Source: Candidatus Eiseniibacteriota bacterium
GTDB taxonomy: Bacteria > Eisenbacteria > RBG-16-71-46
Length of the DNA stretch: 59,345 bases
Assembly (NCBI GenBank): GCA_038231135.1
Contig: JBBRLX010000028.1
Location: 1 to 59,345, forward strand
Reading direction: 5' to 3'
This document shows positions 2,998 through 24,695 of the stretch, in pieces. The notes under the pieces are model-generated. The model searched no databases and was not told the DNA's origin. It was given only the letters and a program-made list of their open reading frames with translations. Made by a program: the position numbers and the translations under genes. Positions within the stretch are counted from its first letter, which is position 1. Every line of letters begins with the position of its first letter.

Positions 2998-3900
2998 ATG
3001 TTTGCCACCCCCAAACCCGAGACCACCCGGCGTGCCGCGGCCCTGCCCTGGCTCGCGTTCGTGGGCTGCTGCGCCATCTGGGGCAGCACGTTCCTCGTGA
3101 TCCGGATCGGCAACGACTCGCTGCCGCCGCTGTGGGCCGCATCGGTCCGGCTGATGCTCGCCGTGGTGCTGCTGACGGCGCTGGCGTCGCGCACGGCCGG
3201 GGGGCTGCCCCGCGGGGCCGCGCTGCGCTCGGCGATGGTGTTCGGCATGCTCGCCTTCGGCTTCGGATTCTGCCTGCTCTACTGGGGCGAGCAGGGGGCG
3301 CCCTCGGGGCTGTCCGCCGTGATGTATGGCCTGGTTCCGGTCACCACGGCCCTGATCGCGAGCGCGCTCGGCCTGGAACGCCTGAAACTCCTCAAGCTGC
3401 TGGCGGCACTGGTCGCGCTGGCCGGGGTGGCGACGCTGTTTTCGGGGCAGCTCCACACCACGGCCCCGCCGGTGCGGCTCGGCGCGGTCATGGTGGCGGC
3501 GCTGCTGGGGGCGCTGGCGGGGGTGCTGCTCAAGCGTGGTCCGCGGCAGAACCCGCTCGGACTCAACGCCGTGGCCGCCATGACCGGCCTCGTTATCTGC
3601 CTCACCGCCAGTTTCGTGTTCCGGGAGCCCCACCCCCTGCCCCGGACGGCCGCCCAGCTGCTGCCAATCGTCTACCTCGCGGTGGCCGGCTCGATCGGGG
3701 CGTTCGTGCTCTATACCTGGCTCGTGAGCCAGTGGAAGGTCAGCCGCGCCAGCTTCATCGCCGTGGTGGTCCCGGTGGTCGCCCTGATCCTGGGCAGCCT
3801 GGTCCGCCACGAGACCCTGGGGGCCACCGGGGCGCTGGGGGCGGGCCTCGTGCTCGCCGGGCTAGCTTTGACCATCGCGGCGGACCGCCTGACGCGGTAA
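2998..3900 (+). CDS. EamA/DMT-family transporter
   Basis: About 10 hydrophobic segments, IWGSTF motif and two-fold EamA repeat pattern. Start is uncertain. Confidence 0.85.
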   Translation: MFATPKPETTRRAAALPWLAFVGCCAIWGSTFLVIRIGNDSLPPLWAASVRLMLAVVLLTALASRTAGGLPRGAALRSAMVFGMLAFGFGFCLLYWGEQGAPSGLSAVMYGLVPVTTALIASALGLERLKLLKLLAALVALAGVATLFSGQLHTTAPPVRLGAVMVAALLGALAGVLLKRGPRQNPLGLNAVAAMTGLVICLTASFVFREPHPLPRTAAQLLPIVYLAVAGSIGAFVLYTWLVSQWKVSRASFIAVVVPVVALILGSLVRHETLGATGALGAGLVLAGLALTIAADRLTR

Positions 3901-3997
3901 ACTGTTTGTCTGGCTTTCTCTCTGACTGGGCCTCATTCGATCGGCGTCGGCCACGCCCGCATCGGCGTGGCAGGACTCACAAAGGAACGAAACCGTC

Positions 3998-8670: not shown

Positions 8671-10758
8671 TCAGTATTCGGCCAGCCGGGCCACGGTCGC
8701 GATCTCCGCGATCCCGACGCGCTCCCGGCCGAGCACCGTGCCGCGGTACCGGGTGGGGCGGAACTCGAGCGCATCCGCCCGGACACCGCCGCACGCGACC
8801 CGCGTTCCCTGGGGGGAAAGTACGGTACGCACCTGCTGCTGCGAGACTTGCCGGCCGTCCTTGAAGAACGCCAGCGTGCATTCCCGCACCTCGAGGCTCG
8901 TACCGGAAGCAGGTTGAACCCTTAGAGCGTAGAGAATCAACGAGTCCACTTCAATGGCCGTGCTCCAGTCGAGCCTGAGGGTCTGATCCCCGGCGGTGTC
9001 GCTGATCCAACCCACGTCGGCGTCCGGCCCCAGCGTGCGGCGGTCGATGGCGGCCCCGGGACCGGCGCTGCCGGGTGCGGTGCTGGTGGCGGTGGCGCGC
9101 GCGGACGGCGCGGCGTTGAAGCGTTTGCCCTCGAAGTCGCTGCGGGCCACCGGGATCGTGGAATGCCCCAGGTGGCAGCCGACGCACTTGGTGCCGCTGC
9201 CGACCCGGTTGGCGTTGAATCCGGGCACGTGCGCCGGCCCCGACACCGAGCGCACGACGTGGCCATGGGCGTCCACCAGTTGCTCGAACATCGGCGTGTC
9301 GCCGGGGAGTCCATCCTCGTGCACAGCGCCTCCGCCCAGCAGCGGCGTCTCGCGGATCATCACCACGGTGTCGCCGCTGGACACGCCCGGGCGCGCGAGC
9401 GCCGCGAAGAACCGGATGCGGAGGCCGGTCTGGATGGGCGGCGCGTCGGGAATCGGCACGTCGACCGCGGCGTTCGCAAACACGTTCAGGCAGTCGAACC
9501 GGAACGTCTCGCCACGGTCGAGGTAACCGGCCGCGTCGGCCGGCGGCAACTCGTTCGGCAGCCCGGAGGCGCGGGCGGGGATCACGGGCGGCCGCCGCCG
9601 GGGCGCGAGCATGGCGGGGTCCAGCTCATCGGTGCCGGGGAGGTCCACGAGCGGCGCCAGGGAGCCGCCGTCGAGGCTCGCCACCTCCAGGCCGAAATCG
9701 CCCGTCCCCTTCACGTCGCAGGCCAGCACGATCCGGCGGCCGCCGAGCGACGCGGGTGCACACGCGATCACCGGCCGGCCGTTGCGATCCGGACGCGGCA
9801 CCGGGACCGGCTCCCCGAAGCCGCCGGAGAACGCGTACACCGACACCGCACCCGGATCGGGATCGAGGCTGGTGTGCTCGGCGGTGACGCCGACCAGCGT
9901 GCCGTCCTCGAGCACCAGCGGCTGGTACGCCATCATGCGCGCGCGGTCGAGCGGGAAGCCCCCGGCGAGCCGGGCGAACCCGCCGTCGGGAGTGATCGAC
10001 ACGGCCTGCCACAGGTCCACCTCGGGCGCCGGGACCGCGCGTGCGCGATCAGTCGTGAACCCCGCCGCGTCGCGATCGCTCGCGAAATGTCCGCTCGTCC
10101 ACCAGCGCGCGAACACGATCCGGCCGGTCCGCGGATCGACGCACGGCTCCTCGGCGCCGTTGCGCTCGGCGGTGATGCGCGTGAGCGCGCCGCCCTGGGC
10201 CTCGACCACGAACAGGTTGCTCGCCAGCCGCCCGCCATGCTCCGCGAGTTGCGGATAGCGCGTGCTCGCGAACACGATGCGCCCGTCGGGCAGCCATGCG
10301 GGATCGAAGTCGTCGTAGCGCTCGAATCGCGCCCGGCCCGGGCCCAGGCGGTCGAGCGGCACGGAGCGATCGCTGCGCGTGACTGGCGCGAGCCCCCGGC
10401 CGTCCGCACCCACGATCCACAGCCGCCACGCGCTGTCAGGAGCGGCGGTCGCGGCGAACACCACGCGCCGGCCGTCCCACGACACCGCGGGGTCCGCGAC
10501 GTCGAAGAACCGCCCGCGCGGCACCAACTCGTAGACCCGGCCGGCCGCCGACCGCACCATCAGCCGCCCGCCGGTCGCGGTCGCCCGCTGCGACGGCCCG
10601 AGTCCGGGAATCCCGCGACCACCGGCGGGCGGCCGCCGCGATACGAACACGATCGCGGGCGCCGAGGTCGGACCCCCAAGCCGGAGCGGCCCGAGAGCGC
10701 TGCCGAACCCCATGCCCCACCCGCCGGCGAGCGCGGCGAGCAGCAGCACACGGTTCAT
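8671..10758 (-). CDS. TolB/PD40 beta-propeller protein, hydrazine-synthase-alpha-like, with one c-type heme motif
   Basis: DPAVSWDGRRVVFA and DDFDPAWLPDGRIVFASTR repeats, CVGCH motif, C-terminal discoidin-like region. ATGA overlap with the upstream gene. Confidence 0.7.
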   Translation of the reverse strand: MNRVLLLAALAGGWGMGFGSALGPLRLGGPTSAPAIVFVSRRPPAGGRGIPGLGPSQRATATGGRLMVRSAAGRVYELVPRGRFFDVADPAVSWDGRRVVFAATAAPDSAWRLWIVGADGRGLAPVTRSDRSVPLDRLGPGRARFERYDDFDPAWLPDGRIVFASTRYPQLAEHGGRLASNLFVVEAQGGALTRITAERNGAEEPCVDPRTGRIVFARWWTSGHFASDRDAAGFTTDRARAVPAPEVDLWQAVSITPDGGFARLAGGFPLDRARMMAYQPLVLEDGTLVGVTAEHTSLDPDPGAVSVYAFSGGFGEPVPVPRPDRNGRPVIACAPASLGGRRIVLACDVKGTGDFGLEVASLDGGSLAPLVDLPGTDELDPAMLAPRRRPPVIPARASGLPNELPPADAAGYLDRGETFRFDCLNVFANAAVDVPIPDAPPIQTGLRIRFFAALARPGVSSGDTVVMIRETPLLGGGAVHEDGLPGDTPMFEQLVDAHGHVVRSVSGPAHVPGFNANRVGSGTKCVGCHLGHSTIPVARSDFEGKRFNAAPSARATATSTAPGSAGPGAAIDRRTLGPDADVGWISDTAGDQTLRLDWSTAIEVDSLILYALRVQPASGTSLEVRECTLAFFKDGRQVSQQQVRTVLSPQGTRVACGGVRADALEFRPTRYRGTVLGRERVGIAEIATVARLAEY

Positions 10759-12314
10759 CGCACGACCGGTACCCGGTGCTCGAGCGTCTGTCCGTTCACC
10801 GTGAGCCGCGCGAAATATATCCCCGAGCCCACCGCGCGGCCGCCGGCGTCGAGGCCGTTCCAGGTCGCGTGATAGCGGCCGGGCGCGTCGGAGCGCGCGC
10901 CGATCAGCGAGCGCACCCGCCGGCCCCGCACGTCGTGGATCGCGAGCGTCACCCGGCTCAGCGCCGGCAGCACCCAATCGAACTCGACGCGTCCCGCACT
11001 CGGCAGCGGGTAGGGCTGCGAGAACTCGAGCAGGCTCGCCGGCGGCGGCACGTTCGACGTGGCGGTCGACACGACGCGGCGGATCTCGCCGGACTGCCGG
11101 CAATACCACAGCCCGCCTTCGGCGCCGATCGCATAGTCGCTGACCTGATCGAACCCGGTGCCCCAGCTGCCGCTCGACGGCTGGCCCGGCACCGGCGCCG
11201 CCACCGCCCAGGTGTCGCCGTCGCGGTGGAGGCGCACCATCACGCTCGAAAAGTAGTCGCTCACGAACGCGTCGCCTTCGTAGGCCGCCGGGAACGACCG
11301 CGTGCCGCCGGCGGGATGGCGATAGATCGCGGCGGCCATGATCGCCGCCGCGCCGGTCGAATGATTGAGCGTGAAGATCGGGAACGTCGCGGGCCCGGTG
11401 AGCGGCTGACCCGACGAGAACACGGCATCGCCTTCGTAGTGGGGCCAGCCGAAGTTCATGCCGCCGTGGTTCGCGATATCGACCTCCTCCCAGGTGTTCT
11501 CGCCGACGTCGGCGATCAGCAGTTCACCGGTGAGATGGTCGAATTGGAAGCGGAACGGATTGCGGAGTCCATACTCCCAGATCAGCCGCGCATTGAGGCC
11601 GCCCACTCCGGCGAACGGGTTACCGGCGGGGGTGATCTGCGCGCGTGACGCGGTACCCGGACCGTCGGGCAATCCGTCGACCGCGAGCCGCAGGATCACG
11701 CCGCGCAGGCTCGTCGTGTCCTGGGCGGCCGGCGACGTCGCATCCTCGCCCAGGCTCACGTACAGGGTACCGTCGGGCGCGAACCGCACGGTGCCGCCGT
11801 TATGGTTGAACGCGTTGTCGGGAATATCGGTGATCAGGTCGTAGCGGCTCGCGGGATCGATCGACAACGTGCCCGCGGGATCCGTGAGCGCGCCCGAGAC
11901 CTTGAACCGCGAGATCTTGATCTTGCCGGTGAGGTCGTTCGAATGCGTATAGATGTAGGGCCGCGACGGCCACGCCGGATCGACCGCGATGCCCAGCAGT
12001 CCGCGCTCCGAGCCGCCGGTGTTGACGTTCGGAACGAAGCCGGCCGAATCCGCGCGCGGCACTCCCGAGTGGCGGACCAACAGGATGCGCGACGACTTCT
12101 GCTCGACGACCAGCAGCCGGCCGTCGGGCAGGAATGCGATGCCCGTGGGAAACCTTAGACCGCCGACGATGAGCTCGTCCGAGAATCCGGTCGGCACGAC
12201 GGCGGCAGGCGTGTTGTGCGCGGCGGCGCAGGACAGGGTGGCGACGACGAGGCCGGGGAACACCATGCGGAACAGGGCCTCGGGGCGGCCGCGTACGGAG
12301 CTGGGGACAGGCAT
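10755..12314 (-). CDS. PQQ-dependent glucose/sorbosone dehydrogenase family protein with FlgD-Ig C-terminus
   Basis: SERGLLGIAVDP, NHNGGTVRFAPDG, YGLRNPFRF, DVGENTWEEV, NFGWP motifs. GGAGG RBS. Confidence 0.85.
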   Translation of the reverse strand: MPVPSSVRGRPEALFRMVFPGLVVATLSCAAAHNTPAAVVPTGFSDELIVGGLRFPTGIAFLPDGRLLVVEQKSSRILLVRHSGVPRADSAGFVPNVNTGGSERGLLGIAVDPAWPSRPYIYTHSNDLTGKIKISRFKVSGALTDPAGTLSIDPASRYDLITDIPDNAFNHNGGTVRFAPDGTLYVSLGEDATSPAAQDTTSLRGVILRLAVDGLPDGPGTASRAQITPAGNPFAGVGGLNARLIWEYGLRNPFRFQFDHLTGELLIADVGENTWEEVDIANHGGMNFGWPHYEGDAVFSSGQPLTGPATFPIFTLNHSTGAAAIMAAAIYRHPAGGTRSFPAAYEGDAFVSDYFSSVMVRLHRDGDTWAVAAPVPGQPSSGSWGTGFDQVSDYAIGAEGGLWYCRQSGEIRRVVSTATSNVPPPASLLEFSQPYPLPSAGRVEFDWVLPALSRVTLAIHDVRGRRVRSLIGARSDAPGRYHATWNGLDAGGRAVGSGIYFARLTVNGQTLEHRVPVVR

Positions 12315-12599
12315 GGAACCTCCGGGAACCTCCGGGTGAAGCGGGTTCGGTGCGGCCTCGTCGCGAAGTTTACGCCACCGGCCGCGGCGGGAGCGAATTT
12401 CCCGTGAAAAACCCGCCTGGGCGCACCCGTCTCCATCCGACCGTGCGTTGCGCGCGTAGTAGGGTGTGACGCGCATCCCGACGAGGCCCTGGAGCCCCGG
12501 GATGCGCGCGCTCCCACCGCCCGCGGTCCCAATGGCCGCCGCGGGCAGCTCCCGGTAACTGGCCGCCGCGCGCGGCCGCAGGAAGGAAAGGGCTCACCC

Positions 12600-14297
12600 A
12601 TGTCCACCCGCAGGTCGTTCACCGCCGTGACAGCGTCGTTGCTGCTCGCCGGCGCCCTGTACGTTCCGTTCGCGCTGGCCTCGAGCCATCGTGAGGCGCC
12701 GGGCATCACCAAGGATCCGACGGCCGACAACACGGATCTCTACGCGTTCCGCAGCCCGGACAAGCCGTCGACGATCACACTCATCAGCAACTGGGAGCCG
12801 CTGCTCGAGCCCGCCGCGGGTCCGAACTTCTACTCGTTCGACGACAAGGCCGTCTATCAGATCATCGTGGACAACGTCGGCGACGCGCAGGACCACATCG
12901 TCTACCAGTTCTACTTCACGTCGCACATCAAGAACGGCAACACGTTCCTCTACAACACCGGCCCCGTGCTGTCGGCGAACGATCCCAATCTGAACGAGTA
13001 CCAGACCTACTCGGTCAAGAAGATCACGAACGGCAAGAGCGAGTGGATTGGCAAGGACCTGCGCTTGCAGCCGAACCGGGTCGGCCCCAAGTCGACGCCC
13101 AACATCAACAAGCTGCAGGAGGACGTCACCTACAAGCTGTCCGACGGCTCGAAGGTGTTCGCGGGCGAACGCGACGATCCGTTCTTCGTGGACCTGGGTG
13201 CCACATTCGACCTGCTCACGATCCGCCATCTCCCGGGCGACATCGGCGGCGGTGTCGACGCGCTGCGCGGCTTCAACACCATGAGCATCGCGCTGCAGGT
13301 GCCGATCGAGGATCTCACCAAGGACGGCGAGGAAGCCGACGACACCAAGTGGCCGGTTCTCGGCATCTATACGACGACCGAGCGTGACGGCAAGCGCGTG
13401 TCGCGCCTCGGCTCCCCGCTCGTGAACGAAGTCGTGATTCCACTCAAGGACAAGGACAACTTCAACCACAGTGATCCGGCCAACGACAGCCAGTTCCTGA
13501 GCTACGTCACGGATCCCGAGCCGTCGCGCCTGCTCCACGCGCTCTACGGCATCAGCGTGCCGCCCCCGCCGCGCAACGACCTGGTGGCGGTGTTCCTCAC
13601 CGGCATCCCCGGCCTCACGCAGCCGAAGAACGGCAAACCGAACGAGATGCTGCGGCTCAACGTGACGATCAAGCCGTCCAGCAATCCCAGCCGCCTCGGC
13701 GTGCTCGGCGGTGACCTCGCCGGATTCCCGAACGGCCGCCGGCTCGCGGACGACGTCGTCGACATCGAGTTGCGCGCGCTGGCCGGCGTGCTGGTCAACG
13801 GCTTCAACACCGCGCCCGGCAACCGGCTCGGCGACGGCGTGGACTTCAACGACCGCTCGTTCCTCACCTACTTCCCGTACGTGTCTCGTCCGTTCGACCC
13901 GCTGAACCACAGCCATCATCGCATCGAGCCGGCGAACGCGCCCGGTCCGGTCGCGCAGCAGGACGGTTCGGAAGGGGCGACGATCACGGTCGCGGGTGAC
14001 GAGATGGCCGGCAACGCCGACGAGGACACGCCGCTGGAAGTGCGCGGCGCGAATCCGGCGCCCAACGCCCAGCTGAGGTTCACGCTGGCCCGTGATGCTG
14101 CCGTGACGCTGCGGGTGTACGACGTGCAGGGCCGGATGGTGCGGTCGCTGCGCGACGAGCGCACCAAGGCTGGCGCGGTCGACGTGGCGTGGGATGGCCG
14201 TGACGACCTCGGCGCGTTCGCCGGCAAAGGCGTGTTCTTCGCCCGCTACTCGGTGGATGGCAAGCTCGTGAACACGAGGAAGCTGATCATCCAGTAG
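12600..14297 (+). CDS. DUF4331-family secreted protein with FlgD-Ig C-terminus
   Basis: ASSHREAP, DNTDLYAFRSP, GERDDPFFVDLG, GFPNGRRLADDVVD motifs. Confidence 0.85.
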   Translation: MSTRRSFTAVTASLLLAGALYVPFALASSHREAPGITKDPTADNTDLYAFRSPDKPSTITLISNWEPLLEPAAGPNFYSFDDKAVYQIIVDNVGDAQDHIVYQFYFTSHIKNGNTFLYNTGPVLSANDPNLNEYQTYSVKKITNGKSEWIGKDLRLQPNRVGPKSTPNINKLQEDVTYKLSDGSKVFAGERDDPFFVDLGATFDLLTIRHLPGDIGGGVDALRGFNTMSIALQVPIEDLTKDGEEADDTKWPVLGIYTTTERDGKRVSRLGSPLVNEVVIPLKDKDNFNHSDPANDSQFLSYVTDPEPSRLLHALYGISVPPPPRNDLVAVFLTGIPGLTQPKNGKPNEMLRLNVTIKPSSNPSRLGVLGGDLAGFPNGRRLADDVVDIELRALAGVLVNGFNTAPGNRLGDGVDFNDRSFLTYFPYVSRPFDPLNHSHHRIEPANAPGPVAQQDGSEGATITVAGDEMAGNADEDTPLEVRGANPAPNAQLRFTLARDAAVTLRVYDVQGRMVRSLRDERTKAGAVDVAWDGRDDLGAFAGKGVFFARYSVDGKLVNTRKLIIQ

Positions 14298-14339
14298 CGC
14301 GGAATCCCGGTGCCGTCCGCGCCGGCAATGACGAGCACG

Positions 14340-14380
14340 GCGGGTCCGGATCCCAATCGATCCGGGCCCGCGGTCGTTTT
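14340..14380 (+). terminator. Intrinsic terminator after the DUF4331 gene
   Basis: GCGGGTCCGGATC-ccaatc-GATCCGGGCCCGC stem followed by ggtcgTTTT. Confidence 0.65.
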
Positions 14381-14429
14381 CGGCATGGACGAAGGAGGCG
14401 GGTCCTTCCCCACAGAATGGGGATGGTAC

Positions 14430-14459
14430 TTGACCCGGCTCCCGCGCCGCTGGCACTCT
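14430..14459 (+). promoter_or_regulatory. Candidate sigma70 promoter for the Cys-leader transcript
   Basis: TTGACC (14430-14435), 18-nt spacer, TGg-CACTCT extended -10-like element. Confidence 0.4.
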
Positions 14460-14509
14460 AATAGCCTGGCTGGAAACCGTCGCGGTTCACCGTTCCCAGG
14501 GGTGTTCTC

Positions 14510-14599
14510 ATGATCCGCAGCCTCACACCGACCTGCTGTTGTTGTTGTCGCATGCTCCCCGGGAGCAGGCGATGTCGGTGCTGGAGCGTCAGGATCTGA
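14510..14599 (+). CDS. Cysteine-rich leader peptide MIRSLTPTCCCCCRMLPGSRRCRCWSVRI
   Basis: AGGGG RBS 7 nt upstream; TGC TGT TGT TGT TGT run at 14534-14548; 7 Cys in 29 aa. Confidence 0.8.
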   Translation: MIRSLTPTCCCCCRMLPGSRRCRCWSVRI

Positions 14600-14680
14600 C
14601 CGCACGGGCTTGAGGCCCGCCTCCAATGACCGCATCGACCGCGGCTCCCGCTTCCACCGGGAGCCGCGGTCTTTTGTATT
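14526..14680 (+). promoter_or_regulatory. Classical transcription attenuator (protector / antiterminator / terminator)
   Basis: Alternative pairings read by eye: 14526-14559 with 14560-14580; 14560-14586 with 14621-14650; 14637-14650 with 14658-14671. Confidence 0.75.
14637..14680 (+). terminator. Attenuator intrinsic terminator
   Basis: Perfect 14-bp stem GACCGCGGCTCCCG / CGGGAGCCGCGGTC, 7-nt loop, then TTTTGTATT, ending 40 nt before the next gene. Confidence 0.85.
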
Positions 14681-14719
14681 CCGATGGATTCCGATCCCAG
14701 CCCGAGAACCGGAGACACC

Positions 14720-15682
14720 ATGATCCTGCAAGCCGACCGTCCAATCGCCGTCTATCACGAGCATCCGCATTGGTTCCGGCCGCTGTTCGCCGAGCTCGAG
14801 CGCCGGCGTACGCCGTATGTGCGGCTCGAGGCCGAGCATCATCGCTACGAAGTTGGCGGCGATCCGCCGCCCTACGGGCTGGTGTTCAACCGCATGAGCC
14901 CGTCGGCGTGGCTGCGCGGCGGCGGCCACGGGATCTTCTACACGCTCCAGTTCCTGCATCACCTGGAGCACCTGGGCGTGCGCGTCGTGAACGGACACGA
15001 CGCGTTCCTCACCGAGACTTCAAAGGCGCGCCAGCTCGCGCTGCTCGAACGGCTCGGCCTGCCGTACCCGCGCGCCCGCGTCATCCACCACCCGGCGCAG
15101 GCGCCGGCGGCCGCGAACGGGCTGCGGTTCCCGGTGGTGGTGAAGCCGAACATCGGCGGCAGCGGCGCCGGCGTGCGGCGGTTCGATACGCTCGACTCGC
15201 TGCGCGCGGCCGCCGAGGGCGGCGAGCTGGATCTCGGCATCGACAGCACCGGCCTGGTGCAGGAGTTCATTCCCGCGGAGAGCGGCCGCATCGTGCGCGT
15301 GGAGACGCTGGGCAAGCGGTTCCTGTATGCGATCCGCGTGTACATGACCGGCGACAGCTACGACCTGTGCCCCGCCGACATCTGCCAGGGCGTCGACGGC
15401 GCCGAGCTGGCACGCGCGGCGTGCCCGGCGGATGCACCGAAGAACGGCCTGCGGGTCGAGGGCTACGATCCCCCGGCCGACATCATCCGCGCCGTCGAGC
15501 GCATCGTCGCCGCCGCGAACATCGAGGTGGGCGGCGTCGAGTACCTGATCGACGAGCGCGACGGCAATCACTATTTCTACGACGTGAACGCGCTGTCGAA
15601 CTTCGTCGCCGACGCCGAACGCGTGATCGGGTTCGATCCGTTCGTGCGGCTCGCGGACTATCTCGAACAGGAGGTCTCGTGA
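14720..15682 (+). CDS. RimK/glutathione-synthase-like ATP-grasp ligase
   Basis: FPVVVKPNIGGSGAGV, VQEFIP, GGVEY, YDVNALSNF motifs. GGAG RBS. Confidence 0.8.
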   Translation: MILQADRPIAVYHEHPHWFRPLFAELERRRTPYVRLEAEHHRYEVGGDPPPYGLVFNRMSPSAWLRGGGHGIFYTLQFLHHLEHLGVRVVNGHDAFLTETSKARQLALLERLGLPYPRARVIHHPAQAPAAANGLRFPVVVKPNIGGSGAGVRRFDTLDSLRAAAEGGELDLGIDSTGLVQEFIPAESGRIVRVETLGKRFLYAIRVYMTGDSYDLCPADICQGVDGAELARAACPADAPKNGLRVEGYDPPADIIRAVERIVAAANIEVGGVEYLIDERDGNHYFYDVNALSNFVADAERVIGFDPFVRLADYLEQEVS

Positions 15683-15684
15683 GC

Positions 15685-16839
15685 ATGCGGCTCGGATACT
15701 GGCTGCCGGTGTTCGGCGGATGGCTGCGCAACGTGCCGGACGAAGGCATGGCGGCGAGCTGGGACTACGTGAGCCGGCTCGCGCGCCGCAGCGAGCAGAT
15801 CGGGTTCGACCTCACGCTCGTCGCCGAGCTGAACCTGAACGACATCAAGGGTCCCGACGCGCCGTCGCTCGACGCGTGGACCACGGCGGCGGCGCTCGCC
15901 GCCGTCACCGAGCGCCTCGAGATCATGGTCGCGGTGCGGCCCACGTTCCATCCGCCGGCGCTGCTCGCCAAGCAGGTGGCGAACCTCGACCACCTGAGCG
16001 GCGGGCGCGTGTCGATCAACGTGGTGTCGTCGTGGTGGGAGGACGAGGCGCGGCAGTACGGCGTGACGTTCGATTCCCACGACGATCGTTACGCGCGCAC
16101 CGCCGAGTGGCTCGCGGTGGTGCGCGGCCTGTGGACCGAGGCGCGGTTCAGCTATTACGGGCGCCACTACCACGTCGAGAACTCGGTGCTGGAGCCCAAG
16201 CCGCAGACTTCACCGGTGATTTATGCCGGCGGCGAATCGGAGGCCGCGAAGGACCTGATCGCGCGGTCGTGCGACGCCTACCTCATGCACGGCGACCCGC
16301 CCGCGCGCATCGCGGAGAAGATCGCCGACCTGTCCGCGCGCCGCGCCCGCCAGCGGCGGGCCAGGTTGAGGTATGGCGTCGCCGGCTACGTGGTGTGCCG
16401 CGACACCGAGGCCGAGGCCCAGCACGAGCTGCAGCGCATCACCACGCTACGCCCGGGCGCCCCCGGGTTCGGCAATTTCGACCAATGGGTGAAGGGCACC
16501 CAGCTCGAGCAGCGGCTGGCGCTCGAGGACTACTCGGTGTCGAACCGCGGGCTGCGCTCGGGGCTCGTCGGCACGCCGGAGCAGATCGCCGAGCGCATCC
16601 GCGAGTTCGAACGCGCGGGCGCGGAGCTGCTGCTGCTGCAGTTCAGCCCGCAGCTCGAGGAGATGGAGCGGTTCGCGGCGCAGGTGACGCCGCTGCTGGA
16701 GCGCGGGGGCGTCGAGGTGACGCCGGTCGCGGTGGGCAGCGAAACGGTCCGAACAGTGGCCCGCCGCGCTTCATCTACCACAGCATCAGCGGCAGTGAAA
16801 CCGGCCAGATTGCACCCAGCAACAGCGCCCAGAACGTGA
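15685..16839 (+). CDS. LLM-class flavin-dependent monooxygenase (SsuD/SfnG-like)
   Basis: AALAAVTERLEIMVAVRP, LDHLSGGRVSINVVS, HDDRYAR, IYAGGES, GLVGTPEQIAERI motifs. Coupled to the upstream gene (alternative GTG start at 15679). The last ~35 aa look non-conserved. Confidence 0.85.
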   Translation: MRLGYWLPVFGGWLRNVPDEGMAASWDYVSRLARRSEQIGFDLTLVAELNLNDIKGPDAPSLDAWTTAAALAAVTERLEIMVAVRPTFHPPALLAKQVANLDHLSGGRVSINVVSSWWEDEARQYGVTFDSHDDRYARTAEWLAVVRGLWTEARFSYYGRHYHVENSVLEPKPQTSPVIYAGGESEAAKDLIARSCDAYLMHGDPPARIAEKIADLSARRARQRRARLRYGVAGYVVCRDTEAEAQHELQRITTLRPGAPGFGNFDQWVKGTQLEQRLALEDYSVSNRGLRSGLVGTPEQIAERIREFERAGAELLLLQFSPQLEEMERFAAQVTPLLERGGVEVTPVAVGSETVRTVARRASSTTASAAVKPARLHPATAPRT

Positions 16840-16972
16840 TGTGCAGGAGCGTTGGATAGGGTGACGCGTCGGAGCCGGCCGCTTCAACGGCGAGCACGAT
16901 CCAAAACCAGGCCGAACTGAGCAGCCATCCGATCAGGTACGCGACCCTTGCCCACAACGGAATTCGCCGCAT
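16775..16972 (-). CDS. Small two-TM membrane protein (tentative)
   Basis: Two strongly hydrophobic Trp-rich stretches; overlaps the 3' end of the convergent LLM gene by 65 nt. Confidence 0.4.
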   Translation of the reverse strand: MRRIPLWARVAYLIGWLLSSAWFWIVLAVEAAGSDASPYPTLLHITFWALLLGAIWPVSLPLMLW

Positions 16973-17012
16973 GGCCACCGCGAACCATTGCACCGTGTTC
17001 GCGCTGAGGCAG

Positions 17013-18050
17013 CTACGAGTTCCCCGTCCGCGAGCCGTTCGGATACCGGCTCATCGCCAGTTCTACGATCTCGCCGATCACGTCCGCGTACTCGCGGCCC
17101 GACTCCTTCGCGGCCATCGAGAATTCGGCGGTCGGCAGCAGGTAGGGATTGGGATTCACCTCGAGCACGTGCACGGTGCCGTCGGTCGCGACGCGGAAGT
17201 CGATGCGGCCGTAGTCGCGCAACTCGAGCGCCTGGAACGCCTGCACGGCGGTGTCCTGCAGCTTGGCGGTGAGGCCCTCGTCGAGGTCCTTGGGAAAGAA
17301 CGGCTGCGTCTGCTTGTAGGCATCGGTGTCCTCGTCCCACTTCACCTCGGTGCCGGCGATCTTGGGCGTGCCGTGCGGCAGCTTCGACAGGTCCAGCTCC
17401 ACGATCGGCAGCGCCTCGGGACGGCCGTTGCCGAGCACCGCAACGTACATCTCGCGGCCTTCGATGTACTCCTCGATCAGCGCCGGGGAATCGAACTGGG
17501 CGTGGATGTAGTCGATGCGGTCCATCAGCTCTTTGATCGAGCTGCACACGGCGCCGAAGTGGATGCCGATCGAACCGTCCTCGCGCGCGGGCTTCACGAT
17601 CACCGGGAACGAGATGTCGTGCGAGTGCTCGGTGCGGCCGCGGAACACGGTGGCGAAGTACGGTGTGTGGATGCCGTGGAACGCGAAGATCTTCTTGGCG
17701 AGCGCCTTGTCCTGGGCGAGATACAGCCCATGCGCTCCGGCGCCGGTGTAGCGGCGCCCCAGCAGCTCGAGATACGCGGCAACGTTGGTGTCGTAGCCGT
17801 CGTGGCCGGAGAACGACTCGACCAGGTTGAAGATCAGGTCGGTCTCGGACGCCGCCAGCTCGACGAGGCTCTGGGCCGTGCCGTCGATGCGCAGGAACAC
17901 GGGATTGTGGCCGTTGGTCTTCAGCGCCTCGTAGACATCCTGCACGTCCTCGTCGGGCGACTTGCGCTTGGGCCGTGGCATCTCCCCCTCGCGCGGCTCG
18001 TCGTCGTCCCACCAGTAGTCGTACAGCACGCCGATGCGAAGCTTGGCCAT
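17013..18050 (-). CDS. D-alanine--D-alanine-ligase-like ATP-grasp protein
   Basis: FNLVES, YTGAG, QDKALAKK, FPVIVKPAREDGSIGI, EEYIEGRE, YGRIDFR, LEVNPNP motifs. Lacks the canonical Ddl GG.S.E N-terminus. Confidence 0.85.
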   Translation of the reverse strand: MAKLRIGVLYDYWWDDDEPREGEMPRPKRKSPDEDVQDVYEALKTNGHNPVFLRIDGTAQSLVELAASETDLIFNLVESFSGHDGYDTNVAAYLELLGRRYTGAGAHGLYLAQDKALAKKIFAFHGIHTPYFATVFRGRTEHSHDISFPVIVKPAREDGSIGIHFGAVCSSIKELMDRIDYIHAQFDSPALIEEYIEGREMYVAVLGNGRPEALPIVELDLSKLPHGTPKIAGTEVKWDEDTDAYKQTQPFFPKDLDEGLTAKLQDTAVQAFQALELRDYGRIDFRVATDGTVHVLEVNPNPYLLPTAEFSMAAKESGREYADVIGEIVELAMSRYPNGSRTGNS

Positions 18051-18104
18051 GTGATGTCCCTTCCCTGGGATCCCCCGACGTTTCCGGTCCTGCGCCGCCC
18101 CGCG

Positions 18105-19118
18105 CTAACTCAGCACGAATCTCCCCCGCGTCAGATAGTTCATCGCCATCGTGGTGCCGTAGGCGGTCAGCTCCACGAGGTATGTACCCTCTCGCCCCGT
18201 CTCCGCCATGAGGTTGCCGTCACGGCAGGTCCGGATGATGCGGTCGACCAAAGCCTTCACGACCGGCCGTTTCACGCCGGTCCAGTAGGTGATCTTGTCG
18301 GTCATCGTCGCGCGATGCTCTTCGAGCAGCTCGGCCGCCGGCCGAAGATTCCTGCGCTTGTCCTTCGCGGCCACGAACAGGTCGGCGAGGTCGGATTCGA
18401 GCGCCACGTTCACGGCAGCTCCGTTCCGGCGCATCATGCGCTGGTAGAACTGCCCCACGGTCACCTGCATGTCCTCGACCGTGATGTCGAAGTCGCCCGT
18501 CGACACGACCGGATCCTGATCACGCAGCTTGCGAAGCGTCACGTCAACATAACGCAACTTGCGGATCGCTGGCCAGGCTTTGTATCGGCGCCGCCAGCTC
18601 GAATTCGGCGTGAGCCACACCGCAAACGTTTCGGCGAAGTCCTCGTCCGGGTGTTTCTGCGCATACCATCCGGCGATGTGCCGCACGAACTTGCGGCTGA
18701 ACGGCACCGGGCGATAGTGGTCGCGATAGCGGCGGTTGTACGGCCCGAACATGTTGCGCCACTCGGGGGTGGCGTACAACCGGTAGGCGTAGTTCAATGC
18801 GTGACCCGCTTCGTGGCGCAGGTACATCATGATCTCGCGCTCGTCCTCGAGATCGTTCATCTCGCGTTCGAGACGCGCGAGCTTGGGGTCCGCCAGGTAG
18901 AATGGAATTCCGATCACCGGCTGGCCGTCGGGGCATCCCCACTCGTCGGTCAGGTAGCACACCGGGCGAAATTTCTTCACGCCCTTCTTCTCGAGCTCGC
19001 GATAGAGCTGGTGCACGAACCGCTCGACGGGAGATCCCTCGAGACGCAATCCGAGCTTGCTGATGGGCGTGCCGAGAATTTCCTGGACGTCGGCAGGAGT
19101 CTTTTCGAAATCCGGCAT
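18105..19118 (-). CDS. Putative zinc-binding metallopeptidase
   Basis: HEAGH zincin motif; WYAQKHPDEDFAETFAVW motif. Confidence 0.8.
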   Translation of the reverse strand: MPDFEKTPADVQEILGTPISKLGLRLEGSPVERFVHQLYRELEKKGVKKFRPVCYLTDEWGCPDGQPVIGIPFYLADPKLARLEREMNDLEDEREIMMYLRHEAGHALNYAYRLYATPEWRNMFGPYNRRYRDHYRPVPFSRKFVRHIAGWYAQKHPDEDFAETFAVWLTPNSSWRRRYKAWPAIRKLRYVDVTLRKLRDQDPVVSTGDFDITVEDMQVTVGQFYQRMMRRNGAAVNVALESDLADLFVAAKDKRRNLRPAAELLEEHRATMTDKITYWTGVKRPVVKALVDRIIRTCRDGNLMAETGREGTYLVELTAYGTTMAMNYLTRGRFVLS

Positions 19119-21134: not shown

Positions 21135-24100
21135 TCAGGGAAGCAGGACCATGCGCCGGCCGAGCGTGCCCCGCTCCGTGGTGAGCCTGTAGAAGTACAT
21201 GCCGGCCCGCGCCGGCCCGCCATCCTCGGTCCGGCCATCCCAAGCGCGCTGGTGAACGCCCGCGTCGAGGCGCCCGTCGACGAGCGTCCGCACCCGGCGG
21301 CCGGCGACGTCGAAGATCGTAAGGCTGACCTTCGCGGTCGACGGCAGCGCGAACCGGATCACCGAGCTGCGAGTGAAGGGGTTCGGTGTGTTTTGATTGA
21401 GCGCTAGCCGCAGCGTCCCATCCCCCGCCCCCACTGCGAGCGTCGGCGCCACGCACTGGATGCTCGTGATGGTGAACGCCTGGCTCGCGTTGGGATTGTC
21501 GAACGCCACGACCTTCCACTGATAGGTACCCGGCGCTGGCGTGACGTAAGTCGCCACCTCGGGATCGTTCGTCGACGTCGCACCGCTCGCCACCGCGTTG
21601 CCGCCCGGGTCGAGCAGGTAGAGGTCGAGATCGATCGCCGGGGCCCCGGTCCAACTCAGCAGTCCCTGCACCTGGCTCACGCCCGAGCCGATCGTGAACG
21701 GCTGCGTCACGAACACGTTGTTCGTGCCCTGAACGTCGACGCCCACGGTGCCGGTGTAGATCGAGCTGTCGGGCGTGCAGTCGCTCGGCGGCGCCGCGTA
21801 TTCGCCGGGCGTCGCGGTCAGCACGACCCGCTGCGTGTCGGCCGCGGCCGACGGGTCGGCGACGCGGAACAGCAGCGTATAGTCGCCCTGCGCCCCGAGT
21901 TGCGGCGTCCACGTGAACACGCCCGTCGAGCCGTCGAACGTGGCGTTCGCCGGCAGCGGCGTGGCGCCATAGGTGAGCGGATCGGATTCGCGATCGTGTG
22001 CCGTGACTGTGAACCGCATCGTCGAGCCGACGCGCGTGGTGCGGTCGGCGATGGGATCGAGCACCGGCGCGGTGTTGCTGCCCGGGGCGCGATTCGCGAT
22101 CGTGAGCGTCACGTCCTCGGTGTCCTCCGCGAGCTGGGTATCGGCGGCGTGGAACGTCACGTGGTAGGTGCCCGCCTGCCCGAACGACGGCTGCCACGCA
22201 AACGTGCGGGCGCCGGGATTGAACGTGGCTCCGGCCGGCAGGCCGGTCGCCGAATACGTGATCGCCTGGCCGTCCGCGTCCGTCGCATGCACGTCGATGT
22301 TGAGGTTCAGGCCTTCCGATCCAGAGCGCGGACCGATCGGATCCAGCACCGGCGTGTGATTGAGCGACGTCGCCGGATCGAGCGGGATCCAGAACGTCGT
22401 CGTCTGGCCCTCGACGGTCGGCGTGCTCGAATTCGACGCGCGGAACACCGTCGCCGTGCTGCCGGTGTAGACCGTGACGGAGAAGCTGTCGACCACACCT
22501 TCGGTGTTCACGAACCCCTTCTCATTCACTGCCAGGAACCACGGGTTCGCGGCGCTCGGCGGCAGGAACTGCGTCACCAGGTCCGCGTCGGTGAGATCGG
22601 AGTGGAAGAAATAGCGCGTTACGTCGCCGAACACCCCGGGCACGACGACCACGGCGGAATCCGCTGCGCCGCTGCCGCCGGTGGGCCGGACGAACGCCGG
22701 CGCGTCGATGCTGGTGCCGCTGCCGAACCGTGTGAACAGATCGTTGTCGATCGCCGTGTGCGACACCACCCACTGCACGCGGGCGCGCACCGGCGGGGTG
22801 TCGGTGAGCACCCGGAACGCGGGCTCCAGGCGCTGGCGGCCGTCCGTGTCGGTCCAGCGCACCTGGTACCAGTAGGGCGCGCCGGCGACCAGCGAGGGAT
22901 CGGTGTCGGTCCAGGTGTAGAACGTGCGGTTGCCGGTGCGCTCGATCACCGCGTGCCCTTTGGGCGCTACCGCCGGGCTCGCCGCCGCGAAGTCGCCCGC
23001 GAAGCCGCCGAGATCGGGCGCGCGGTAGACGCCGAACTCCGTGACGCCGATCTCGCGCTGCGTCGTCCACCGCACCTGGATCTGCAGCACACCGTCAAGC
23101 CTGGCGGGCGTGGCGCCTTCGGCGATGACCTGGGTGGTCGCCGGGTCGAGCGCCTCCTTCACGGCGGCATACGCGTCGGGCTCTCCCCAGCCCCATGACG
23201 GATGGTAGTTGGGATCGAGGTGGAACGGATCGGAGGCCGACGGCGGCTGCTGGCCATGATCGGTGCGGTGCTCGGCCGTGTTCTGCGCGATGTCGCGAAC
23301 CTGGAGCGGCGTCAAGTTGGGATTCGCCTCGAGGATCAGGGCGCACAGGCCGGTGATCGTCGGCGTCGCCATGCTGGTGCCGTTGATGTTGTGATAGTGC
23401 CGGCCGTCGCTCGTGGGGTCGCCAAGCGCCGAGATGATGTCGGAGCCCGAGCCGAGCACCGACGGCTTCATCTCGTCGAAGTGATCGCCGTCGTTGTCGG
23501 ACTGCCGCGGGCCCTCGTTCGAGTAGTTGGCGACGATGTCGTCCGAGTGCTGCAGCGTGTTCGCGTCCTGCATCGCGCCCACCGCGATGTCGAGATCGGC
23601 AGACGCCGGGCTCGGCATGTACGCGGTCTTGCCGTCGTTGCCGGTGGCCACGCATACCACGATGCCGGCGCGCACCGCGGCGTTCACCGCGACGGCGTCC
23701 GCGTCGGTGCCGTCGGAGGCGGTCGCGCCGCCGATGCTCATGTTCACGACCTGCACACCCCGGAGCACGGCGCCGCCGGCGTCGGTGCCCCACACCCGAT
23801 TGCGGTTCGCGATGCACCAGTCGAGCGCCTCCGCCGCGCCGCCGCCCTCGCCGGCATCGGTGAGCACCTTGCAGTCGACGAGCCGCGCGTTCGGCGCCAT
23901 GCCGGCGTAGGTGCCCGGTGTCGCGCCCGGCGGCAGCACGCCCGTGGGACCGCCGCTGCCGATCGCGGTGCCCGCGACGTGGGTGGCGTGGTACGACCCC
24001 TCGGGATCGACGGTGTTGCGCGGATTCGCGCTGGAATCGGGCGGCGTGTTGAGGCTCGCGTCCGCGTTCGAGAAGTCGCCGCCGCCCACGAACTTGCCGA

Positions 24101-24695
24101 GCAGGGATTCATGGCCGGGATAGCTGTTGAACGGCTGGTCGTTGACGCCCGTGTCGAGGATGCCGACGACGACGCCGCGTCCCGTCATGCCGAGCTGGCT
24201 CCAGACCGACGGGAACATGCCGGCGCCGACGCCGCCCGCCGCGTCGCGCGCGCGCAGCGTGCGCGTGGCGTTGTCGTTGAACGGGTACATCGGCTGCCAC
24301 GCCTCGACGCGCCGCACGCCCGGCCTGGCGAGGATCGCCTGGATCTGCATGAACGACACGCGTGCACGCAGGTAGTCGATCGAGCGGGCCTGCCACAGCA
24401 GCCGGGCGCCCGTCGCCGTCAGCGCCGCGACGTCGGCCGCGGTCGGATGGTGGTCGTACGCCACGTAGACGCCGTACTCGACGCCGCCCGTCACGGGATA
24501 GACGAACAGGATCTGCCGGTCGTTGAGATTCTGGTGCAGATGCGCGGCGGGCAGGCCGCCCGTCTGCACGGCTTCGATACGGTCGTCGATCCGATTCTGG
24601 TTCTGGTCCCACATCCACGTGGCCGCGAGAGCCAGGGATGTGGTGAGCGAGACGAACACGCTCGCAACGAGCGCGGCAACCAGTGAGCGTCGCAC
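21135..24695 (-). CDS. Secreted S8 subtilisin-like protease with Ig repeats, PPC-like domain and FlgD-Ig C-terminus
   Basis: Catalytic triad ILDTG / HATHVAG / GTSMATP; two putative Ig domains (PVLDPI...F.W.P); QNTPNPF C-terminal domain. GGAGG RBS. Confidence 0.9.
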   Translation of the reverse strand: MRRSLVAALVASVFVSLTTSLALAATWMWDQNQNRIDDRIEAVQTGGLPAAHLHQNLNDRQILFVYPVTGGVEYGVYVAYDHHPTAADVAALTATGARLLWQARSIDYLRARVSFMQIQAILARPGVRRVEAWQPMYPFNDNATRTLRARDAAGGVGAGMFPSVWSQLGMTGRGVVVGILDTGVNDQPFNSYPGHESLLGKFVGGGDFSNADASLNTPPDSSANPRNTVDPEGSYHATHVAGTAIGSGGPTGVLPPGATPGTYAGMAPNARLVDCKVLTDAGEGGGAAEALDWCIANRNRVWGTDAGGAVLRGVQVVNMSIGGATASDGTDADAVAVNAAVRAGIVVCVATGNDGKTAYMPSPASADLDIAVGAMQDANTLQHSDDIVANYSNEGPRQSDNDGDHFDEMKPSVLGSGSDIISALGDPTSDGRHYHNINGTSMATPTITGLCALILEANPNLTPLQVRDIAQNTAEHRTDHGQQPPSASDPFHLDPNYHPSWGWGEPDAYAAVKEALDPATTQVIAEGATPARLDGVLQIQVRWTTQREIGVTEFGVYRAPDLGGFAGDFAAASPAVAPKGHAVIERTGNRTFYTWTDTDPSLVAGAPYWYQVRWTDTDGRQRLEPAFRVLTDTPPVRARVQWVVSHTAIDNDLFTRFGSGTSIDAPAFVRPTGGSGAADSAVVVVPGVFGDVTRYFFHSDLTDADLVTQFLPPSAANPWFLAVNEKGFVNTEGVVDSFSVTVYTGSTATVFRASNSSTPTVEGQTTTFWIPLDPATSLNHTPVLDPIGPRSGSEGLNLNIDVHATDADGQAITYSATGLPAGATFNPGARTFAWQPSFGQAGTYHVTFHAADTQLAEDTEDVTLTIANRAPGSNTAPVLDPIADRTTRVGSTMRFTVTAHDRESDPLTYGATPLPANATFDGSTGVFTWTPQLGAQGDYTLLFRVADPSAAADTQRVVLTATPGEYAAPPSDCTPDSSIYTGTVGVDVQGTNNVFVTQPFTIGSGVSQVQGLLSWTGAPAIDLDLYLLDPGGNAVASGATSTNDPEVATYVTPAPGTYQWKVVAFDNPNASQAFTITSIQCVAPTLAVGAGDGTLRLALNQNTPNPFTRSSVIRFALPSTAKVSLTIFDVAGRRVRTLVDGRLDAGVHQRAWDGRTEDGGPARAGMYFYRLTTERGTLGRRMVLLP

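Follow-up and report, generated by a model that had tools for sequence, protein, structure and literature searches.

A predicted cysteine-sensing leader-peptide attenuator in front of an ATP-grasp/flavin monooxygenase operon of a Candidatus Eiseniibacteriota bacterium

Contig JBBRLX010000028.1 of assembly GCA_038231135.1, derived from a Candidatus Eiseniibacteriota bacterium, was analysed over its full 59,345 nucleotides (the window). Between positions 14430 and 14719 it holds a leader region in front of two genes, encoding an ATP-grasp ligase and a luciferase-like flavin monooxygenase (LLM), and this leader comprises a short open reading frame (ORF) with five consecutive cysteine codons, followed by an intrinsic terminator. 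An earlier interpretation made from the letters alone (the sequence-only reading) had described the arrangement as an attenuator with the geometry of the trp, his and thr attenuators, i.e. with three mutually exclusive pairings: a protector (1:2), an antiterminator (2:3) and the terminator (3:4). That geometry is supported by the conserved architecture of the region, by compensatory changes in the 1:2 and 3:4 pairings and by the lack of room for a promoter behind the terminator, and we consider it likely that the leader is a ribosome-mediated transcription attenuator, predicted to sense cysteine supply and to control read-through into an operon of ATP-grasp and SsuD/SfnG-like genes. The features that the argument uses are the following.

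14498-14502 (+): Shine-Dalgarno (SD)-like AGGGG, 7 nt 5' of the leader ATG
14510-14599 (+): leader ORF of 29 codons, peptide MIRSLTPTCCCCCRMLPGSRRCRCWSVRI; its start-codon columns are kept in the 11-member alignment described below
14526-14532 (+): segment 1a, the 5' strand (CACCGAC) of the outer protector helix, pairing with 14574-14580
14534-14548 (+): putative regulatory cysteine run TGC TGT TGT TGT TGT, codon positions 9-13, unpaired between the outer protector helix and the inner hairpin
14547-14573 (+): inner protector hairpin (14547-51/14569-73 plus 14553-58/14562-67, -16.6 kcal/mol), the 3' strand of which contains the antiterminator core
14560-14566 (+): putative antiterminator core CGGGAGC, identical to the loop-proximal part of the terminator 3' arm (14658-14664) and able to pair with 14644-14650
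14570-14585 (+): auxiliary strands of the 2:3 pairing, joined to 14622-14637 in the fold with a stalled ribosome; only the CGG:CCG part is conserved
14605-14619 (+): small G+C hairpin directly 3' of the stop codon of the leader ORF, formed in both states
14637-14680 (+): intrinsic terminator with a 14-bp stem (14637-50/14658-71, 12 G-C pairs), a loop of 7 nt (14651-57) and a U-tract from 14672 (TTTTGTATT)
14720-15682 (+): first gene of the operon, encoding a RimK/LysX-type ATP-grasp ligase that scores below every curated cut-off; GGAG at 14711-14, 5 nt before the ATG
15685-16839 (+): second gene of the operon, encoding an SsuD/SfnG-type LLM; 2 nt separate its start from the stop codon of the ATP-grasp gene

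Sequence and translation both agree with the sequence-only reading in that the upstream ORF (uORF) has 29 codons with five cysteines in succession, four of them encoded by TGT, and the ribosome-binding site that had been assumed in front of it corresponds to the AGGGG motif. The ATG at 14510 is the first start codon in the leader frame, the stop codon is TGA at 14597-14599, and GGAGG-type motifs precede the uORF in two relatives (L004 and L194). With the additional cysteine codons at 14573 and 14579, seven of the 29 codons specify an amino acid that accounts for 0.92% of all codons in the 1207 long ORFs of this genome. TGT was rightly called a disfavoured codon in this DNA, as it makes up 14% of the cysteine codons in the same ORFs. 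In the leaders of the family described below, the share of TGT amounts to 54% (58 distinct leaders) and cysteine takes up 18.1% of the codons, although the latter enrichment is partly by construction because the leaders were selected for cysteine. Methionine, which was not a selection criterion, takes up 9.1% of the leader codons (initiators included), versus 1.63% in the genome; we do not claim methionine sensing for the window because the one internal ATG of its leader class sits in a stem (GCATGC). The assembly contains a single tRNA-Cys gene, with anticodon GCA. This anticodon decodes TGT by wobble, and the TGT codons of the leader would therefore be wobble-read. One may speculate that the preference for TGT raises the sensitivity to Cys-tRNA levels, or else keeps the run unstructured.

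Folding of the segment 14500-14690 without constraints returned a protector plus a terminator, as had been predicted, at -91.3 kcal/mol (z -3.5; 1 of 200 shuffles was as good). The protector helices in this fold (14526-32/14574-80, 14547-51/14569-73 and 14553-58/14562-67) are those that the sequence-only reading had drawn; together the three amount to -26.2 kcal/mol, and to -39.0 kcal/mol when extended. The terminator hairpin, whose 14-bp stem and U-tract had likewise been recognised at their proper positions, amounts to -32.4 kcal/mol.

Evidence for conservation of these structures comes from an alignment of 11 distinct leaders that belong to the same terminator-stem class as the leader in the window (GCGGCUCCC). 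In the terminator-state structure, 82.9% of the alignment cells pair, against 40-48% with slid partners, and both sides have changed in 15 of the 38 pairs, a number that is reached in none of 500 shuffles. The protector has compensatory changes in 7 of its 18 pairs: three of the seven pairs of the outer helix (69.7% of cells pairing) and four pairs of the inner hairpin (86.8%). The terminator stem pairs in 97.3% of the cells and has four doubly changed pairs, so that the covariation that had been proposed as a check is found in the protector as well as in the terminator. RNAalifold, run without the window structure as input, returns the same two elements, with the protector hairpin extended into the last cysteine codons. 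The hairpin at 14605-14619 has weak pair counts (58.5% of cells), but a hairpin is found at the same position in class A and class B leaders; it probably acts as a spacer or a pause hairpin.

The codons that take part in the stems are fixed at their synonymous sites: CTC in 10 of 10 sequences, GGG in 11 of 11 and AGC in 9 of 9, where the genome-wide usage of these codons is 40%, 18% and 28%, respectively (the aligned sequences are related, so this fixation does not translate into a probability). The codon in the hairpin loop varies and specifies eight different residues over the 11 leaders (P, R, E, H, V, H, R, Q, L, R and D). Fixed synonymous sites in the stems together with a variable loop codon point to selection at the level of the RNA and not of the peptide.

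To describe the distribution of the element, it was defined as a Cys-rich short ORF, with 3 or more Cys codons in a stretch of 10, and a terminator of 8 bp or more, located within 1 kb upstream. Orthologues of the ATP-grasp gene occur in 12 of the 206 genomes of the window's phylum (a relative from the same genus is without one), and all 11 phylum loci for which upstream DNA is available have the Cys-rich short ORF and a terminator with a U-tract. The ATP-grasp/LLM pair also occurs widely outside the phylum, for instance in Gemmatimonadales and Acidobacteriota, and there the element was found in 24 of 79 loci from the genome collection and in 39 of 73 metagenome loci, in both cases the eligible loci among the best 80. 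The antisense strand of the same regions, used as a control, yielded the element at 0/11 phylum, 2/79 genome and 1/73 metagenome loci (3/163 in total), and a second control, taken 1 kb inside the operon, at 0/11 phylum and 0/152 other loci (0/163 in total). The sequence-only reading had expected poly-Cys uORFs to be conserved in front of homologous operons, and this expectation is borne out by the phylum loci (11/11, against 0/11 in the controls). The counts are lower bounds, as earlier versions of the scan missed real cases such as L111; the leaders of L191-L193, L195, L196 and L111 had escaped on account of interspersed cysteines (C-x-C-x-C) or terminator stems longer than 14 bp. At the same time, the set includes loci that depend on one another, as the leader peptides of L031 and L032 are identical to those of L191 and L195. 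The start codon, the frame, the length of about 30 codons and the clustering of cysteines are conserved between classes that differ in nucleotide sequence, and the leader peptides of different classes have only their richness in Cys (and Met) in common. The complete genome of 4.09 Mb contains 428 Cys-rich short ORFs and 494 terminator-like sites, and the two occur together once, namely at this leader; a single coincidence proves little, and it is therefore the comparative result that carries the weight. A scan of the same genome for a Cys regulon accordingly gave no second Cys-rich short ORF with a terminator.

The operon that the leader precedes consists of two genes, since the genes after 16839 are convergent. 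Among NCBIfam models, the LLM scores best with SfnG (248.5 bits) and SsuD (181.4 bits), in neither case reaching the cut-off, and its sequence matches in the structure database include PDB entries 3rao (2.5e-125) and 8vw6 (5.6e-114), the latter named 'alkanesulfonate monooxygenase'. Many of the operons outside the phylum begin with an FMN reductase gene, placed between leader and ATP-grasp gene. An FMN reductase combined with an LLM is the layout of two-component sulfonate monooxygenases, as established for SsuDE and MsuDE. In addition, a SAM-II riboswitch (RF00521, gathering score 36) is located immediately 5' of the Cys uORF in 2 of 20 leader-bearing loci, i.e. L140 (431-506, 46.6 bits) and L033 (2690-2766, 45.2 bits), and in none of 20 further loci; a search of positions 13000-16000 of the window, with E up to 10, gave no SAM-II match. 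In L140 and L033, two sulfur-related sensors would thus be arranged in series. The riboswitches and the enzyme families together tie the operon to sulfur and methionine status. The sequence-only reading had held that the SsuD-like downstream gene fits sulfur starvation, and a link to sulfur agrees with the SsuD and SfnG matches, the FMN reductases of the relatives and the SAM-II elements; the operon most likely serves to release sulfur from an organosulfur compound.

The constant company of the small ORF and the ATP-grasp/LLM pair would also fit a different explanation, in which the short ORF is itself a gene, encoding a Cys-rich small protein or a precursor akin to RiPPs (peptides of ribosomal origin with modifications made after translation) that is modified by the ATP-grasp enzyme and the monooxygenase, with the hairpin as its own terminator that provides an excess of precursor. 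ATP-grasp enzymes do mature ribosomal peptides, the ATP-grasp protein has a faint match to TIGR04187 (E 1.9e-5), and a partial terminator behind the precursor gene is a layout found in lantibiotic clusters. The TIGR04187 score is 24 bits, however, against a cut-off of 350, and the best matches of the enzyme are of the RimK/LysX type. The peptides are alike across classes only in Cys (and Met) content, the window class constrains synonymous stem sites and leaves the loop residue free, and the copy of the terminator arm inside the ORF changes along with the terminator class. Where an FMN reductase gene separates the peptide gene from the ATP-grasp gene, the layout is that of a two-component sulfur monooxygenase. 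Furthermore, the window peptide is devoid of Asp, Glu and Lys, the residues that graspetide cross-links need. A RiPP-precursor or graspetide cluster was rejected on the TIGR04187 score, the class-matched decoy and the synonymous-site constraint, and we hold the reading of the short ORF as such a gene to be very improbable.

The formation of the antiterminator was studied by masking the footprint of a ribosome that has cysteine codon 2, 3, 4 or 5 in the A site, in a transcript that was cut before the 3' arm of the terminator. The lowest-energy fold then consists of the pairings 14560-66/14644-50, 14570-74/14633-37, 14576-79/14629-32 and 14582-85/14622-25. The 2:3 pairing of the sequence-only reading forms in the masked fold, but three of its four helices lack conservation: in the window class its GGGAGC:GCUCCC core (6 bp) is kept in 9-11 of the 11 sequences per pair and its CGG:CCG sub-helix in 7-10 of 11, whereas the CGATG/CATCG and TGGAG/CTCCA helices that had been included are unconserved. 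The core hardly varies within the class (four of seven pairs are invariant), which speaks neither for nor against the pairing. In a sister class of 26 sequences (Gemmatimonadales-type), 82.3% of the cells of the antiterminator helix are paired and 11 of its 21 pairs are doubly changed, with 71 doubly changed cells versus 44.5 +/- 5.3 in shuffles (0 of 500 reach this number). When the five terminator-stem classes (63 leaders) are compared, the post-Cys segment of the own class forms the best normalised duplex with the terminator 5' arm in 5 out of 5 cases, be it by a small margin in the window class (0.58 versus 0.57 and 0.56). In leaders shortened in the same way, pairing between the post-Cys part of the uORF and the terminator 5' arm is seen in 25 of 63 cases when no ribosome is present; a ribosome placed on the last Cys codon raises this number to 44 of 63, and one on the middle Cys codon to 50 of 63.

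The mechanism that these structures suggest would run as follows. When Cys-tRNA is plentiful, the ribosome would reach the stop codon at 14597 and the protector would re-form behind it, thereby hiding CGGGAGC, so that the terminator could form and transcription would end near 14675. When Cys-tRNA is scarce, the ribosome would stall with one of Cys codons 2-5 in the A site, where it would cover 14526-14556 and prevent the two 5' strands of the protector from pairing. Once free, CGGGAGC could, aided by the flanking pairings, capture GCUCCCG (14644-50) as soon as that has been transcribed, i.e. the loop-proximal half of the terminator 5' arm, where the terminator hairpin must nucleate. This decoy would hold the 5' arm while RNA polymerase crosses the U-tract, and the operon would be expressed. 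The switch would be a kinetic one, as in the trp attenuator, and its effect would be that a shortage of cysteine induces sulfur scavenging.

Several results weigh against this attenuation model. Although the sequence-only reading had staked the proposal on a 2:3 helix that can compete energetically with the terminator, in the full transcript with a stalled ribosome the terminator state (-75.6 kcal/mol) is preferred over the forced antiterminator (-65.0 kcal/mol); since the terminator is about 11 kcal/mol more stable at equilibrium, the switch can only be kinetic. The same asymmetry between the energies of terminator and antiterminator is found in the trp attenuator. With a ribosome on the first Cys codon, the inner hairpin stays intact in the fold. 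The CGATG/CATCG and TGGAG/CTCCA helices pair in 45-65% of the cells of the window class, which is near the slid controls, and we treat them as specific to the window. The duplex of the post-Cys segment with the terminator arm does not stand out from shuffles in the window (z -0.52), and for the 63 leaders z averages -1.4, with 18 of 63 below -2. A scan for sigma-70 promoters on the + strand of 14200-17100 gave no site, the gap between terminator and ATG included, although the consensus of the host phylum may differ. A look through public sequencing runs gave none of RNA that contains the sequence. Finally, about half of the orthologous operons outside the phylum have no leader that the same scan detects, and control by the leader is therefore not obligatory. 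In the metagenome loci L116, L118 and L121, where the FMN reductase gene starts the operon and adjoins a divergent gene, there is no Cys leader, terminator or Rfam element, and those copies must therefore be controlled differently.

In the surroundings of the leader, three further features are located.

12600-14297: gene for a DUF4331/FlgD-Ig protein, upstream of the leader
14340-14371 (+): terminator-like hairpin of that DUF4331 gene, 13 pairs followed by GGTCGTTTTC; the 5' limit of the leader region
14430-14462 (+): possible promoter, not established; TTGACC at 14430-35 and TCTAAT at 14457-62 with an off-consensus spacer of 21 nt, read from the sequence

We do not claim the last of these as a promoter because of its 21-nt spacer. 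On the other side of the leader, 48 nt separate the end of the terminator stem from the ATP-grasp ATG in the window. The median distance from stem end to the next SD-preceded start codon is 29 nt, with 40 nt or less in 49 of 61 leaders, in a table of which five rows, that of the window included, are spurious TTG calls inside the U-tract. A separate promoter does not fit into so short a distance, and expression of the structural genes would therefore depend on read-through.

Read-through need not respond to cysteine, and a structured 5' region could be present whose terminator is constitutive or is regulated otherwise (by a protein, a small RNA, a metabolite or Rho), the Cys codons not being the signal or the uORF remaining untranslated. 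Such a scheme would be in line with the strength of the terminator, which at -32.4 kcal/mol wins at equilibrium, with the lack of a + strand sigma-70 site in the promoter scan, and with the SAM-II riboswitch that does part of the job in some relatives. It does not sit well with a start codon, frame, length and clustering of cysteines that are conserved across divergent classes, nor with the 18.1% of Cys (partly by construction) and the 9.1% of Met (not selected for) in the leader codons. Neither does the leader match a family in Rfam: a scan of 13000-16000 with E up to 10 gave no leader or riboswitch family, and three chance-level matches to eukaryotic miRNA and snoRNA families. We therefore regard regulation that disregards the Cys codons as quite unlikely.

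Leader peptides that respond to cysteine have been described or predicted before. For Actinobacteria, Cys leader peptides that are not accompanied by terminators were predicted by Seliverstov et al. 2005 (PMC1262725), in agreement with the sequence-only reading. In mycobacteria, leaderless short ORFs (sORFs) with polycysteine tracts (Ms5788A, Rv2334A and others) regulate translation, termination having been excluded by experiment, and attenuation mediated by a Cys uORF was according to the same authors not described until then (Canestrari et al. 2020, bioRxiv 10.1101/834739); PMC13096801 and PMC13236596 treat these polycysteine sORFs as Cys attenuators. Brewer et al. 2021 (PMC8632094) list uORFC-8-2, a predicted ribosome-mediated attenuator in front of cysS in Rhodobacterales, with two conserved tandem Cys codons in the first stem and a terminal stem with a U-run.

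The present leader resembles the mycobacterial and actinobacterial Cys leaders in that its consecutive Cys codons would report the charging of Cys-tRNA to a sulfur-related operon, and it might by analogy sense cysteine through ribosome stalling with an output that is translational or based on polarity, the terminator playing a minor part. The only Cys-responsive attenuation that has been shown experimentally does act on translation (Canestrari et al. 2020), and the promoter-like site that, by eye, ends 6 nt before the uORF ATG in L006 would make that uORF leaderless. The two systems differ, however, in that the mycobacterial sORFs are leaderless and have a Cys tract that pairs with the SD of the next gene, whereas the window uORF has an SD-like motif, an unpaired Cys run and a conserved canonical terminator. 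None of the folds of the window has a pair that joins the Cys run (14534-48) to the ATP-grasp SD (14711-14), and a canonical terminator with a U-tract is present in 11 of 11 phylum loci, with a stem that co-varies. A translational or polarity-based output is in our judgement highly improbable. The promoter-like site itself is an observation on L006 (about 1040-1085) and L196, which both have TTGACT-18 nt-TAATCT ending 6 nt before the uORF ATG; in these two loci the Cys leader may be leaderless, like in mycobacteria, and the terminator stem is a different one (CCCGCUG).

The attenuator proposed here resembles trpL, hisL, thrL, leuL and pheL of Enterobacteria (Canestrari et al. 2020) in its short leader ORF with a run of candidate regulatory codons and in an intrinsic terminator that lies shortly before the first gene, and it would also share their mutually exclusive 1:2, 2:3 and 3:4 pairings and a kinetic antiterminator. 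It differs from them in its Cys codons, which are unpaired between two protector helices instead of inside segment 1; in its operon, which comprises an ATP-grasp gene and an organosulfur-type monooxygenase gene instead of genes for amino-acid biosynthesis; in its host, from an uncultured phylum of soil and sediment; and in that no Rfam leader family matches it. It is also like uORFC-8-2, in that both are predictions of ribosome-mediated attenuation that combine tandem Cys codons with a terminator ending in a U-run. Compared by its description, uORFC-8-2 has two Cys codons at positions 14-15 where the window leader has five at 9-13, and it is restricted to cysS in a single alphaproteobacterial order, whereas here an ATP-grasp/LLM operon is concerned. 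A search of the literature, with subscription journals mostly outside its reach, gave no paper that places a Cys leader before an operon of the ATP-grasp/LLM or sulfonate type, nor one on such a leader in Acidobacteria, Gemmatimonadota or Eisenbacteria. The suggestion that a full Cys attenuator would be undescribed thus holds for this family and lineage only, because a Cys uORF with a terminator had already been predicted for cysS (PMC8632094). The element appears to be a Cys-specific instance of the known class of leader-peptide transcription attenuators and would not be categorically new.

Beyond the window, the chances seem about even that these leaders form a large, unpublished family of leader-peptide attenuators that sense sulfur amino acids, in at least three soil phyla (Eisenbacteria-like, Gemmatimonadota and Acidobacteriota), with Cys- and Met-rich leaders that favour wobble-read TGT and that are stacked behind a SAM-II riboswitch in some lineages. 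Such a family would define a sulfur-starvation operon, with a conserved ATP-grasp/monooxygenase pair for an organosulfur chemistry that is as yet unknown. In the case of cysteine, no terminator-based leader-peptide attenuator has been shown by experiment, as the mycobacterial cases are translational and the cysS case is a prediction. The many natural variants of the family, in which the stem and the decoy inside the ORF change together, offer a convenient system for studying the evolution of attenuators. In addition, the family would label an uncharacterised but soil-widespread ATP-grasp/flavin monooxygenase pair as 'induced by cysteine shortage', and as a consequence the search for its substrate narrows to organosulfur compounds. 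At a higher level, it would imply that uncultured phyla use classical attenuation. A leader with His codons precedes hisG in the same genome: a His-rich ORF of 26 codons, MRTIHRHHHEHRSHGPTGPGRARSAG (contig C11, locus L197, 1130-1210, - strand), is followed by a terminator and lies upstream of hisG (144-1007, - strand; TIGR00070, 215.5 bits). It is a candidate histidine leader-peptide attenuator, and leader-peptide attenuation therefore seems to be in use in the lineage.

Some observations concern the neighbourhood of the operons. In L140, a match to group II intron D1-D4 (RF01999, 93.3 bits) is located downstream of the operon, at 3828-3942. In the window, a convergent gene pair on the - strand (17013-19118) encodes a protein similar to Peptidase_Mx zinc metallopeptidases (18105-19118) and a second ATP-grasp protein, which is of the D-Ala-D-Ala-ligase type (17013-18050) and has no relation to the operon behind the leader. 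At 10755-14297 and 21135-24695, several large proteins of the secreted type end in a FlgD-Ig-like C-terminal domain and have similar tails: the gene at 12600-14297 encodes DUF4331 plus FlgD_ig, and the tail of a subtilase-like ORF of 1186 aa is alike by eye. This FlgD-Ig-like tail may be a sorting tag of the phylum.

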